A DNA stretch of 64,000 bases from an uncultured Sphingorhabdus sp. (GCA_947501885.1 CANMXN010000003.1:54946-118945), one strand, 5' to 3'. Positions 59,267-63,417 are shown, counted from the first letter of the stretch. Numbers and translations: made by a program. Notes: a model not told the origin generated them from the sequence alone.

Positions 59267-59477
59267 CTTTCGTTATCATATAGCAATATATGGCCTTACT
59301 TTCTATGGCCAGTTGACCTTATGATAATGGTTGGCGATTTCGGTCATTCAGATATAAGATTATATTCACATATTTATGCATCATTCACCTTGACGATTTG
59401 ACTCTATTTCGCCAAAGCCTCACCCAAGTTTAACGCAATTTCATTGTCGTAAATTTGCGAATTTAAAGGAAAGCGGA

Positions 59478-60377
59478 TTGGCGGACCAAAAACCCCTAAA
59501 TTTTCAGGACATGATCCTGCGTTTACATAGCTTTTGGTCTTCAAAAGGTTGCGCAATATTACAGCCTTATGACATGGAAATGGGCGCAGGAACATTTCAC
59601 AGCGCGACCACATTGCGCGCGCTTGGCCCTGTTCCTTGGAACGCAGCCTTTGTGCAGCCGTGCCGCCGCCCAACCGATGGCCGTTATGGCGAAAACCCCA
59701 ATCGATTGCAGCATTATTACCAATATCAAGTCATCCTCAAACCATCGCCCTCCGATATTCAGCAGCTCTATTTGGATAGTTTGCGCGAAATTGGCATCGA
59801 TCCGATGCTGCACGACATAAGATTTGTTGAGGATGATTGGGAAAGCCCAACGCTTGGCGCATGGGGGCTTGGCTGGGAAGTATGGTGCGATGGCATGGAA
59901 GTCACGCAATTTACATATTTCCAGCAAATGGGTGGTTTTGATTGCAAGCCCGTTGCGGGTGAACTGACCTATGGTTTGGAACGGCTGGCCATGTATATCC
60001 AAGGCAAAGATAGTGTCTTTGATCTGGATTATAATGGTAGTGGCGTAACTTACGGCGATATATTCCATGAAAATGAAGTGCAAATGAGCACATGGAATTT
60101 TGAAATAGCGGACACCGAAACATTGTTCAAACAATTTGAAATGGCGACAGCCGAATGCGAAAATTGCTTGGAAAAATCTCTGCCTATTCCCGCCTATGAA
60201 CAAGCGATTAAGGCTAGCCATACGTTCAATCTATTGCAAGCACGCGGCGTGATTAGCGTACAAGAACGGGCATCCTATATGGGCAAGGTGCGCGATCTGG
60301 CAAAAGGCGCGTGCGAAAAATGGATAGAGATTAACAAAGAAGAATGGGCGCAAAAATTCCCCCAATGGAGTTTGTGA
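59478..60377 (+). CDS. glyQ: Glycine--tRNA ligase alpha subunit
   Basis: [31 protein letters not shown]-type ELTYGLERL. Confidence 0.98.
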
Positions 60378-60976
60378 TGATGGAGATTGTAAGCAATTTT
60401 ATGAACAGTGTTCATCTTGAGTCTGTCGCCAAAAGCACCACTCGCAACCGTAATAACACTCGTTACCCCACCGCCACTCGTAACCGCACCACTCTCCGTC
60501 ACGGCACTGCCACTTGTAACCGCAGCACTCTTCGTCGCCCCACCACCGTTCGTCACGCCGCCGCTACACGTCATTCTACCACCACTCGTCACCCTGAATT
60601 TATTTCAGGGTCTATTAGTGCTGGTAAGATACTGAACCAAGTTCAGCATGACGAAGGTGTTATACTGAAACAAGTTCAGCATGACGAATGCGGTGAAATC
60701 ATGTATGATTTAGTGAACACCGTTCGTCCTGAGCCTGTCGAAGGACAAGGTAGTGTGGTTCATGCTTCGACAAGCTCAGCACGAACGGCAAAGCTACTAG
60801 ATCAAAAGAGGTTCACCGATCTTGTCGAAGGACAGGTGATGCGCTCTTATCATGATTCACTCGGCGTGATACTGAAACAAGTTCAGCATGACGAAGATGT
60901 TATACTGAACCAAGTTCCGCATGACAGTAATCGATTGCCGAACCAAGTCCCACATGACGGGGGTGACAGGTCATGA
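60377..60976 (+). CDS. Repeat-derived 199-aa ORF filling the glyQ-glyS gap (coding status uncertain)
   Basis: ATG overlaps the glyQ stop (TGATG), TGA overlaps the glyS start (ATGA), no internal stop; built largely from repeats. Confidence 0.45.
   Translation: MMEIVSNFMNSVHLESVAKSTTRNRNNTRYPTATRNRTTLRHGTATCNRSTLRRPTTVRHAAATRHSTTTRHPEFISGSISAGKILNQVQHDEGVILKQVQHDECGEIMYDLVNTVRPEPVEGQGSVVHASTSSARTAKLLDQKRFTDLVEGQVMRSYHDSLGVILKQVQHDEDVILNQVPHDSNRLPNQVPHDGGDRS
60439..60600. repeat. Degenerate 18-bp tandem array, 9 units
   Basis: Units begin at 60439, 60457, 60475, 60493, 60511, 60529, 60547, 60565 and 60583; consensus about CACTCGTCACC-n7. Confidence 0.85.
60587..60959. repeat. Palindromic repeat family B (CGTC-tagged): one left arm and five right arms
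   Basis: Left CGTCACCCTGAATTTATTTCAGGGTC at 60587-60612; right arms like GATACTGAAMCAAGTTCAGCATGACG at 60628, 60661, 60868, 60901 and 60934. Confidence 0.85.
60720..60788. repeat. Palindromic repeat family A, copy 1
   Basis: CCGTTCGTCCTGAGCCTGTCGAAGG...CTTCGACAAGCTCAGCACGAACGG; decayed half-copy at 60811-60835. Confidence 0.9.
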
Positions 60977-63417
60977 GCGATTTTCTACTCGAATTACGAT
61001 GCGAAGAAATCCCCGCCCGCATGCAGGCCAAGGCCCGCGCCGATTTGGAGAAATTATTCACAGCCCAGCTTAAAGATGCTGGATTAGAAGTCCAAAGCAT
61101 CACCACTTATAGCACGCCGCGCCGTTTAGCATTGATAGCGCGCGGTCTGCCCAAGCAAACCGAAGCCGTGCGCGAAGAACGCAAAGGCCCAGCAGCAAAT
61201 GCGCCCGAACAAGCGCTAGCAGGATTCTTACGCAGTACAGGATTAAAGCGCGAAGATTTGGTGGAACGCGACGTCAAAGGCAAAGCGGTATTGTTCGCAA
61301 TCATCGAAAAACCAGGTCAACCCACGACGGATATATTGTCGGCTGCTATACCCGCGATTATAGCGGCATTCCCATGGCCCAAGTCACAGCGTTGGGGCGA
61401 GGCTAGCATTAGCAGTGAGAGTTTACGTTGGGTGCGGCCTTTGTCGAGTATCATTGCATTATTCGATGGCGAAGTGGTTGATTGCGAAGTGCATGGAATT
61501 GCTTCTGGCCGTACCACTATGGGCCATCGTTTTATGGCGAATAGTGCCGTTCGTGCTGAGCCTGTCGAAGCACGGGAAACCAGCTCTAGCACCCTTCGAC
61601 AAGCTCAGGGCGAACGGACTTCTAACACCGCGATAAGCATCGAAACGGTTGATGAATATCTGCCCAAATTGCGCGCCGCTCATGTGATAGTTGATCATGA
61701 AGAACGGCAAAATATTGTGCGAGATGGTGCAGCAAAAGCGGCTAGCGATGCAGGGCTATCTCTTGTCGAAGACGAAGGCCTAGTGATTGAAAATGCAGGT
61801 CTGACCGAATGGCCCGTGCCGCTGTTGGGCCGTTTTGACGAGGCTTTTTTGGATGTTCCCGAAGAGGTTATTCAGCTTACCACGCGCATTAATCAGAAAT
61901 ATTTTGTTGCCAGAGAGAAACAGGGCGATAGTGGTGGTAAATTGACCAACGCCTTTGTCTGTACCGCGAACATACATGCGATTGACGGCGGCAGCGCGAT
62001 TGTCGCGGGCAATGAAAAAGTATTGGCGGCGCGACTGGGCGATGCGAAATTCTTTTGGGAATTGGATCAGAAAACGCTGCTTAAAGAGCATGCCGAAAAA
62101 TTATCGAATATCGTGTTTCATGAAAAGCTTGGAACGGTGGCTGATAAGGTGGAACGCGTTGCGAAATTGGCGCGCTGGCTCTGCGAAGAAGGCATTGTTA
62201 AGCCTATCGCCAAAAACACCGTTCGTCCTGAGCCTGTCGAAGGACAGGGTGTTCATACTTCGACAAGCTCAGCACGAACGGCTGAAGAACTTGCTGATCT
62301 CGCCGAGCAAGCAGCGCGCTTATGCAAGGCTGATTTGGTCACCGAAATGGTGGGTGAATTTCCCGAATTACAAGGGCTCATGGGCGGATATTATGCCGCC
62401 AAAGAAGGATTACCAATCGAAGTATCCGAAGCAATCCGCGACCATTATAAACCCGTGGGCCAAAACGATGATGTACCGACAGATCCCGTCACCGTTGCAG
62501 TGTCGCTGGCTGATAAGTTGGATACGTTGGTAAGTTTTTTCTGGGAAGAAATGATGCCCACTGGATCGAAAGACCCCTTCGCACTCAGAAGAGCCACTAT
62601 TGGCATTATCGAATTAATTACAGCAAACAATCTCAGGATTAGAATGAATTTAGCTTGTGCGCAGACATTCCTTCCGTTGGCAAACAGAGACGCAATAGCA
62701 ATCTTCAATGAAGGTGCAATATCGCGAGTCCAAGAGATATCAAAACCACAATATGATCCAATAAGCGGCATATTTACTGTTATTAACCAAGACAGTCTTA
62801 AAGGATTGAATAAGGAAGTTTGGGATCAGCTAAATGAAAAGAATAAAGCCATCAGAACTAAGCTTAACGTCTTCTTCGCTGACCGTCTCAAGGTTCAGCA
62901 AAAAGAGGCTGGTGTTCGTCATGATTTGATTGATGCTGTGTTTGCGCTTGGCCAAGAAACAAATGAGCGCGAGGATGATTTGGTCCGTTTGCTGGCTCGC
63001 GTTCATGCTTTGCAGGATTTTGTCACCACCGATGATGGTGTGAATTTATTGGCGGGCTATAAACGCGCATCGAATATCCTCAAAAAAGAAGCACCAGATA
63101 CGCTTGATAACAGCAATGATATGAACAATAGCGAAATTGTTATTTTTGAAGCACCATCGGATGAACCCGATCAATCCACGGCTTTGCAAAATGCCTTAAA
63201 CGCAGCCGAGCCAAAGGCAGCCGAAGCCATTGAAAGCGAAGATTTCGAAGGCGCGATGAGCGCGCTGGCATCGCTGCGCACGCCCATCGATGCATTTTTC
63301 GACAATGTCATGGTCAATGATGAAGATGCAGCAAAGAAAAAATATAGATTAGGATTATTATCACGTTTCCGTGATGCTGTGCATCGCGTTGCTGATTTTT
63401 CCAAAATAGAAGGTTGA
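60973..63417 (+). CDS. glyS: Glycine--tRNA ligase beta subunit, with in-frame insertions
   Basis: LLELRCEEIP, TPRRL, WVRPL, GNEKVLAARL.DA.FF, EFPELQG, GSKDPFALRR, FFDNVMVN. Confidence 0.97.
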   Translation: MSDFLLELRCEEIPARMQAKARADLEKLFTAQLKDAGLEVQSITTYSTPRRLALIARGLPKQTEAVREERKGPAANAPEQALAGFLRSTGLKREDLVERDVKGKAVLFAIIEKPGQPTTDILSAAIPAIIAAFPWPKSQRWGEASISSESLRWVRPLSSIIALFDGEVVDCEVHGIASGRTTMGHRFMANSAVRAEPVEARETSSSTLRQAQGERTSNTAISIETVDEYLPKLRAAHVIVDHEERQNIVRDGAAKAASDAGLSLVEDEGLVIENAGLTEWPVPLLGRFDEAFLDVPEEVIQLTTRINQKYFVAREKQGDSGGKLTNAFVCTANIHAIDGGSAIVAGNEKVLAARLGDAKFFWELDQKTLLKEHAEKLSNIVFHEKLGTVADKVERVAKLARWLCEEGIVKPIAKNTVRPEPVEGQGVHTSTSSARTAEELADLAEQAARLCKADLVTEMVGEFPELQGLMGGYYAAKEGLPIEVSEAIRDHYKPVGQNDDVPTDPVTVAVSLADKLDTLVSFFWEEMMPTGSKDPFALRRATIGIIELITANNLRIRMNLACAQTFLPLANRDAIAIFNEGAISRVQEISKPQYDPISGIFTVINQDSLKGLNKEVWDQLNEKNKAIRTKLNVFFADRLKVQQKEAGVRHDLIDAVFALGQETNEREDDLVRLLARVHALQDFVTTDDGVNLLAGYKRASNILKKEAPDTLDNSNDMNNSEIVIFEAPSDEPDQSTALQNALNAAEPKAAEAIESEDFEGAMSALASLRTPIDAFFDNVMVNDEDAAKKKYRLGLLSRFRDAVHRVADFSKIEG
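61547..61617. repeat. Palindromic repeat family A, copy 2, inside glyS
   Basis: CCGTTCGTGCTGAGCCTGTCGAAGC...CTTCGACAAGCTCAGGGCGAACGG; read as VRAEPVEARETSSSTLRQAQGER. Confidence 0.92.
62219..62281. repeat. Palindromic repeat family A, copy 3, inside glyS
   Basis: CCGTTCGTCCTGAGCCTGTCGAAGGACAGGGTGTTCATACTTCGACAAGCTCAGCACGAACGG; read as VRPEPVEGQGVHTSTSSART. Confidence 0.92.

Follow-up and report, generated by a model that had tools for sequence, protein, structure and literature searches.

The glyQ-glyS junction described here lies in a 64,000-nt stretch of DNA (hereafter the window, positions being counted from its first letter) from an uncultured Sphingorhabdus sp. (GCA_947501885.1 CANMXN010000003.1:54946-118945). 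The two genes, which encode the alpha and beta subunits of glycyl-tRNA synthetase, are separated by 595 nt of repeat DNA, and a single open reading frame (ORF) out of six, termed the relay ORF, leads from the glyQ stop to the glyS start. Comparison with related loci makes it probable that this gap is selfish repeat DNA without a protein function, whose frame has been selected to preserve ribosome transit and glyQ-glyS coupling. We demonstrate the geometry of the junction, the repeat nature of the gap, its ancestral state and a frame-specific lack of stops over many independent insertions.

A relay ORF overlaps glyQ and glyS

In the ORF list, glyQ (59478-60377, + strand), whose product is 70-94% identical to GlyQ of relatives, ends on a TGA at 60375-60377. 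The glyS gene (60973-63417, +) matches Pfam tRNA_synt_2f (E = 8.6e-177); its product starts MSDFLLELR and aligns with relatives from residue 1. The relay ORF (60374-60976, +) has three in-frame starts, GTG 60374, ATG 60377 and ATG 60380, and ends on TGA 60974-60976. The open frame as a whole spans 60344-60976, and counting from ATG 60377 gives 199 codons. At the upstream junction, GTG 60374 forms GTGA with the glyQ stop, and ATG 60377 shares the A of the TGA as TGATG, the two together spanning 60374-60379. At the downstream junction, the relay TGA overlaps the glyS ATG at 60973 as ATGA (60973-60976). Both ends lie within the stop/start spacing of -4 to +3 nt given as the coupling range (PMC12548453). 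The first-pass annotation of this DNA had described one open frame whose ATG shares a base with the glyQ TGA and whose TGA overlaps the glyS ATG, which is correct in every detail.

The remaining five frames of the gap contain 12, 19, 13, 10 and 6 stops. In dinucleotide shuffles of the gap the relay frame was open in 0 of 500, and any relay geometry arose in 2 of 1,000. We agree with the rough chance proposed earlier for 199 stop-free random codons, (61/64)^199 or ~7e-5, and the shuffles extend it to the real composition of the gap.

A Shine-Dalgarno-like GGAG (60367-60370, +) lies 6 nt before ATG 60377. In ungapped relatives the same TGGA/TGGG motif precedes the overlapping glyS start, and the GGAG appears to be the ancestral glyS ribosome-binding site, now serving the relay ORF. 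A second Shine-Dalgarno-like motif, GGGGGTGA (60959-60966, +), is found 6-9 nt before the glyS ATG, and gapped relatives have purine-rich motifs at the equivalent position. The gap RNA folds at -204.7 kcal/mol (z = -5.5 versus shuffles). A promoter and terminator scan gave matches at chance level, with no + strand intrinsic terminator-like site within the gap, and an Rfam search of 59300-61200 returned sub-threshold hairpin matches alone, far under gathering scores.

Insertions across Sphingomonadales keep the same frame open

We compared 70 Sphingomonadales glyQ-glyS loci, classing as gapped those whose junction exceeds 30 nt. Ancestrally, glyQ and glyS overlap by their stop and start codons, mostly as the 4-nt (A/G)TGA, and most loci are spaced -8 to +5, mostly -4. 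Insertions are present at the junction in 32 of the 70 loci. Gapped loci occur in many places on the GlyQ tree, mostly beside an ungapped sister, which implies separate insertions, by our reading of the tree at least 15-20. The first-pass annotation had proposed comparing these gaps for a frame kept despite different repeats; in all 32 gaps >30 nt, one frame runs without a stop from the end of glyQ through to the start of glyS.

A relay ORF was defined geometrically by a start within -12 to +9 of the glyQ stop and a stop within -15 to +8 of the glyS start. By this definition, 29 of the 30 gaps of 31-700 nt are bridged. The thirtieth, in which the glyS start had been mis-picked, is bridged once corrected, and two further bridged gaps, in the genomes G128 and G116, make 32. 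An earlier, stricter criterion (open right up to the glyS ATG) had classed eight loci as unbridged; their translations revealed relay stops 2-10 nt before the ATG, plus one mis-picked glyS start, and the criterion was then widened. Relay stops fall at +1 relative to the glyS start in most loci and otherwise at +5, -2, -4, -5, -6 or -10. Shuffling gives an expectation of 8.2 bridged gaps out of 30 (~27%; Poisson-binomial P ~2e-22, loci treated as independent).

The lack of stops is specific to one frame. When 29 gaps are read on from the old glyS start, none contains a stop in that frame (0 in total), whereas the other five frames total 62, 73, 57, 48 and 40 stops and are stop-free in just 5-10 of the 29. 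Almost all gap lengths are of the class in which the old start and the TGA within the new ATGA share a frame.

The inserts belong to at least six unrelated families. These comprise B-like and C/GTAG-like elements (families B and C being the dispersed repeats of the window's own genome), GTCAYCCCCGCGAAGGCGGGG..CCCGC..GCGGGAATGAC, CTCTCCC..GGGAGAGGG, CGCGAAGGCGCG arrays, GTCGAGCGAAGTCGAGAC elements and a DUF559 gene flanked by terminal inverted repeats. One element family can be read in different frames depending on the locus, as seen from the translations FVTPAKAGVH versus SSPRRRGS and LSLSK versus PEPVEG. It is therefore the frame of the junction that is conserved, and not an ORF built into the element. 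Cultured relatives carrying a junction insertion include Sphingobium quisquiliarum P25, Sphingobium xenophagum, Sphingomonas mollis BT553 and Sphingomonas sp. YR710.

Some junctions hold genes. At four glyQ-glyS loci (L055, L040, L046 and L069; gaps 451-603 nt) the insert is a DUF559 (Vsr-like nuclease) gene between the inverted repeats CCTCCCCGG..GGGGAGGGGGACC..GGTGGAGGGGG. Its reading frame is the relay frame opened by the old start, and in L055 it matches Pfam at E = 7e-30. L070 has a gene-less derivative of this element, and in L117 its repeat forms an in-frame SufS extension. Among Alphaproteobacteria outside the Sphingomonadales, the genes between glyQ and glyS resemble, by eye only, one for a CDGSH-type iron-sulfur protein (L098) and a two-gene cassette of the VapBC toxin-antitoxin type (L090). 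In both loci the inserted genes begin on the old ATGA or GTGA.

Repeat content of the gap

The window's own genome (2.65 Mb, 43% G+C) contains ~60-90 copies of family B (up to 3 mismatches), with arms of the form (C)GTCAYSCTGAAC..GTTCAG, and ~20 copies of family C. The first repeat in the gap is a degenerate half copy of the family C palindrome (60407-60429, +; GTTCATCTTGAGTCTGTCGCCAA, read VHLESVA), of which 17 of 23 bases match the C left arm by eye and which is homologous to AVRLEPVARN copies in the closest relative, G128 (relay 1, below). This is followed by an 18-nt tandem array of ~8.5 units (60440-60593, +; eight 18-nt units by repeat search), read as TRHxxT-type hexapeptides. The 18-nt unit is absent elsewhere in the genome, making the array local to the glyQ-glyS locus.

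Further downstream are a family B left arm (60587-60611, +; CGTCACCCTGAATTTATTTCAGGGT, read RHPEFISG), two family B right arms with a 33-nt period (60628-60693, +; ILNQVQHDE and ILKQVQHDE) and three more with the same period (60868-60958, +), the third degenerate; the right arms number five to six in total. Between the two groups lie a complete family C palindrome (60720-60788, +; 24-nt arms, 92% complementary; VRPEPVEG...STSSART) and, at an offset of 87 nt, a partial family C arm (60818-60834, +; GATCTTGTCGAAGGACA). The block at ~60716-60867 is roughly 88% identical to G128, judged by eye.

The 33-nt units at 60628, 60661, 60868 and 60901 have start-to-start spacings of 33, 174, 33 and 33 nt, with 240 nt from 60628 to 60868, and all internal repeat offsets in the gap are multiples of 3. 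Our repeat search (18- and 33-nt units, 240-nt offset) agrees on this point with the first-pass annotation, whose peptides are likewise read in the translation as TRHxxT-like, IL(N/K)QVQHDE and VRPEPVEG. Tandem Repeats Finder returned no match in the gap, the units being too diverged for it. An antisense ORF of 105 aa (60275-60592, - strand) crosses the 18-nt array and the end of glyQ; it was dropped as a gene candidate because it is the array read backwards and overlaps the glyQ end.

Family B and C repeats are not intrinsically open. Among the other B-only arrays in the genome (no family C element, >=130 nt), 10 of 11 are closed in all six frames, and the RH..QVQHD frame of full family B elements is open on the + strand in just 4 of 31. 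Outside the relay ORF, the genome's spacings between like arms show no preference modulo 3 (7 of 21), and a 33-nt same-arm period occurs nowhere else in it.

Origin of relays by target duplication

When empty and filled sister sites are paired, the filled site proves to carry a target duplication of 6 to ~20 nt, which takes in the start codon and, in some pairs, the Shine-Dalgarno region as well (~20 nt in L004/L005, ~17 nt in L020/L018 and 6 nt in L009/L008; L016/L017 is also a pair). The typical, short target-site duplications of transposons are not known to be of this length. The window gap itself retains no clear target duplication.

The closest relative, G128, whose GlyQ is 94% identical, has a gap of 417 nt with two relay ORFs in series (L141 2394-2818), and each join is an ATGA. 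We compared it with the window through ORF lists and tblastn, since a MAFFT alignment mis-anchored the 5' end. Relay 1, made of family C, has its start on the glyQ stop (GTGATGATG) and ends in a TGA that overlaps the ATG of relay 2. This second ATG sits in a duplicate of the first 15 nt (five codons) of glyS, ATGAGCGATTTTCTA (L141 2648-2665 versus 2812-2829). Relay 2 continues through a short array (1-2 18-nt units) and a B element to a TGA overlapping the present glyS ATG.

The duplicated glyS start of G128 shows how a target duplication can create a relay. In the window, both relays form a single fused frame, with the array grown from 1-2 to ~8.5 units. Two marine/aquatic metagenome contigs, each ~90% identical, represent further states. 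In one, the array is shorter by exactly 126 nt (7 x 18) and the frame is open; in the other, 125 nt are replaced by 35 nt (net -90) with no stop as far as the ATGA, which looks like relay 1 joined straight to glyS. All states observed, in the window, G128 and the metagenome contigs, are in frame. The first-pass annotation had called the relay a de novo spacer ORF. That it is built of repeats holds; it is not wholly de novo, because insertion left the old glyS start codon and ribosome-binding site in place, as the empty/filled pairs indicate, and the frame starts there.

The same arrangement elsewhere in the genome

Six co-directional gaps holding B or C elements in the window's own genome have the exact -4/+1 geometry, with lengths of 103, 106, 121, 121, 136 and 595 nt. 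Twenty further co-directional B/C gaps are unbridged; these are mostly >=188 nt and resemble ordinary intergenic regions. The five additional relay ORFs, of 36-47 codons and with exact -4/+1 overlaps, are at C2:322541-322681 (+), at C2 ~256.48-256.62 kb (-) and in three C1 gaps holding the repeat clusters C1:286443-286466, C1:555502-555522 and C1:1404965-1404985. One relay of this genome lies between sufD and sufS and reads TTGA, 46 codons with a B element, ATGA; another is flanked by a 137-aa ORF and by what, judged by eye, is a carboxyltransferase-like gene.

The sufD-sufS junction repeats the comparative pattern. Its ancestral state in relatives is an overlap, and the frame is continuous from the old start in 10 of 10 loci with >=20 extra codons: six in-frame SufS N-terminal extensions, two relay ORFs and two lipoprotein genes coupled at both ends. 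The small genes of the last two, L112 (from G128) and L123, encode the lipoprotein-like signal peptides LNRTFILCALLALPAC and MTRASALALAALVLASC. For GlyS, no in-frame N-terminal extension was seen, the first residues M-T/S-D-F-L-L-E-L-R being alike in all relatives aligned. A GlyS N-terminus intolerant of extension would explain why glyQ-glyS junctions have relay solutions only.

Family C is also read within host proteins. Two in-frame family C palindromes lie inside glyS, at 61547-61617 (+; VRAEPVEA...LRQAQGER) and 62215-62282 (+; VRPEPVEGQG...TSSART). They correspond to residues ~193-220 and ~414-443, absent from the GlyS of relatives, and each adds about 27-28 residues. Most family C copies in the genome are in frame within long ORFs (270-1046 aa), among them C1:471335-471479, C1:711106-711313, C1:1467272-1467343, C1:1556821-1556886, C1:1604826-1604891 and C2:321176-321238, the last lying in sufC and reading TSVHAEPVEVQADDPSTSSGRTD.

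A 163-aa ORF at C2:255577-256095 (-) has family B arms at both ends around a ~300-nt unrelated core and no Pfam match. A TGATG couples it to the ORF upstream, and it shares 14 nt with the following ORF; it may represent a larger element, flanked by B arms, that is read as a relay.

Proposed mechanism and alternative explanations

We propose the following course of events. Repeats would have piled up at a former 4-base (A/G)TGA overlap of glyQ and glyS, and the old glyS ribosome-binding site and start, left beside the glyQ stop, would have opened a 199-codon frame through all of them. Ribosomes ending glyQ, or loading at GGAG 60367-60370, would translate the relay and melt its hairpins, terminate on the ATGA and restart on glyS. 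The two synthetase subunits would thereby stay translationally linked and the long structured spacer would never be naked, the relay peptide being a by-product without a function of its own. Later changes, namely insertions, 18- and 33-nt expansions and the fusion of two relays, would survive only if they kept the frame. Coupling reportedly works best at spacings of -4 to +3 and decays over tens of nucleotides (PMC12548453), so an untranslated spacer of 595 nt would uncouple the subunits. We infer that the relay frame is translated and that loss of this translation would lower GlyS.

Several points weigh against this interpretation. In the window, as in most gapped relatives, glyS has a Shine-Dalgarno-like motif of its own, and its initiation may therefore not strictly depend on the relay. 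The loci are partly non-independent through insertions shared by descent (L008/L010, L045/L047), which makes the P value given above too small. Palindromes are lost on shuffling but kept in the five-frame control. Survivorship at insertion is not separable from later purifying selection. The metagenome contigs are short and may be chimeric in the repeats, and only two joints anchored in unique flanks were used. A search of sequencing runs for the locus found no RNA run and only three marine/aquatic DNA metagenomes, with 5-7% of words.

The strongest alternative, which we consider possible though somewhat unlikely, is that the relay acts against polarity only. Ribosomes would cover and unfold the 600 nt of RNA against Rho-dependent termination and nucleases, and glyS would initiate alone, with no hand-over. 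The strongly structured gap RNA, GGGGGTGA with its purine-rich counterparts in gapped relatives and the lack of a + strand terminator-like site in the gap are consistent with this. However, relay stops are tightly clustered on the glyS start, which coverage alone would not need, and stop/start spacings are mostly in or near the most efficient coupling range of -4 to +3 (PMC12548453); the clustering in part follows from the frame, ATGA being inherent to the glyS start. The first-pass annotation had held that selection keeps ribosomes moving through the hairpins to prevent polarity on glyS. The selected open frame is supported by the 32 of 32 gaps; the benefit selected may be reinitiation, protection from polarity or both, between which sequence alone cannot decide.

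Far less probable is that the ORF is a real coding gene, whether a small ancestral gene that repeats have overwritten or one arisen de novo with a functional Thr/Arg/His-rich product. Its start context is good, its 199 codons make it much longer than any other gene-free relay sampled, and its product would be made at levels similar to GlyS. Against this, a Pfam search matched the relay product to no family, a homologue search among 5.8 billion proteins returned only the query itself, and tblastn gave no match when run on the first 29 relatives sampled and, in a later run, no more than partial similarity in G128. G128 divides the region into two ORFs of different composition, repeat copy number differs between close relatives, and the sequence is dispersed repeat DNA that has stops elsewhere in the genome. 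The ancestral gene overwritten by repeats, which the first-pass annotation had offered as its alternative, is rejected by the ungapped sisters on the GlyQ tree: sister lineages and outgroups have the 4-nt overlap and no gene there. The relay ORF is best read as an orphan frame and not as an independent gene. The Thr/Arg/His-rich repeats were also considered as a leader peptide or attenuator, an idea dropped since the relay peptides of relatives share no amino-acid pattern.

That the frame is a chance or compositional by-product of repeats happening to have no stops, without selection, is extremely improbable and already rejected by the comparative counts: tandem 18- and 33-nt units do spread an open frame automatically, and the GC-rich palindromes of relatives have few stops (shuffles 20-60% open for short gaps), but no shuffle of the window gap was open, the relay frame of relatives has 0 stops versus 40-73 in each other frame, nearly all gap lengths put the old start in frame with the new stop (1 mod 3 for (A/G/T)TGA starts), and in this genome, of 43% G+C, other B arrays have no open frame among the six.

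Significance of the junction

An operon for an essential enzyme of two subunits can take up 600 bases of selfish DNA if one frame stays open from the old start to the new. The Sphingomonadales glyQ-glyS junction is a replicated natural experiment, with >15 independent insertions of at least six families, all bridged; the selective advantage of translational coupling and of ribosome transit can be measured directly on it. For annotation, such 'hypothetical proteins' are relay frames and not genes; gene callers will predict them, and screens for de novo genes will be misled by them.

We also put forward, tentatively, that coupled (A/G)TGA junctions are a preferred, self-repairing landing niche for unrelated palindromic families. 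The target duplication of 6-20 nt would copy the whole module of ribosome-binding site, start and stop, so that an element would be born with a relay ORF or, in 3n cases, as an in-frame N-terminal extension; elements would then pile up to hundreds of bases within essential operons. If this were true, glyQ-glyS, filled in 32 of 70 loci, would be a hot spot of such insertion, and bacterial operons would evolve under a general rule that any insertion at a coupled junction remains translated from the old start.

Comparison with known systems

Repetitive extragenic palindromes (REPs) with CGTC or GTAG heads are short palindromes, dispersed in many copies and in some cases located within ORFs (Di Nocera et al. 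2013, PMC3733652). Similarly, the arms of family B begin CGTCA, the elements of L015 and L018 begin GTAG, and copies are many and dispersed. In contrast to our case, PMC3733652 does not describe relay ORFs or coupling, and none of the papers found in our literature search linked REP-type palindromes to relay ORFs. A search for the REP-associated tyrosine transposase RAYT (Y1 transposase, PF01797) found none in the window's own genome, which is 100% complete; control genomes were positive.

Rickettsia palindromic elements (RPEs; Ogata et al. 2000, cited in PMC3733652 and PMC3184786) are palindromic repeats tolerated as translated sequence. Family C resembles them in lying in frame inside glyS (twice), sufC and several large proteins of the same genome. 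RPEs join a functional host protein, whereas the relay ORF stands as a cistron of its own, with a product that is probably waste.

Short upstream ORFs deliver ribosomes to downstream genes by termination-reinitiation (Brown and Wade 2025, PMC12548453). The role proposed for the relay is the same, to bring a ribosome to a downstream start and not to encode a protein. The delivering ORF of the window differs in being 199 codons of repeat DNA, in lying between essential cistrons and in being itself coupled to the upstream one.

The closest parallel is to mycobacterial interspersed repetitive units (MIRUs; Supply et al. 1997). According to PMC12548453 and PMC3184786, these units of 40-100 bp insert at start codons between operon genes, and an ORF within the repeat is coupled at -4 spacing, which is thought to permit insertion with minimal effect on expression; tetranucleotide direct repeats, recognized from empty and filled sites, flank them. 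The window's repeats likewise fill a gap between co-oriented genes, glyQ and glyS, that overlap by 4 nt in relatives. Its relay overlaps the upstream stop and the downstream start (GTGA, TGATG, ATGA), and empty and filled junctions in Sphingomonadales carry a direct target repeat.

The differences are equally clear. Sphingomonadales belong to another phylum, the units of the window are 18 nt, 33 nt and ~69-nt palindromes, and their sequences are probably unrelated to those of MIRUs. The palindromic families at glyQ-glyS number at least six and are read in different frames, so that the ORF is imposed by the junction. The window relay is a composite of 199 codons that grew as tandem units expanded in frame and two relays fused, and target duplications in Sphingomonadales measure 6-20 nt versus the tetranucleotide of MIRUs. 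The glyQ-glyS gap would work like a MIRU and is not filed as one. The relay principle itself is already known, having been proposed for MIRUs, and the junction presents an unusually clear case of it, such a frame being kept by all 32 relatives with an insertion.

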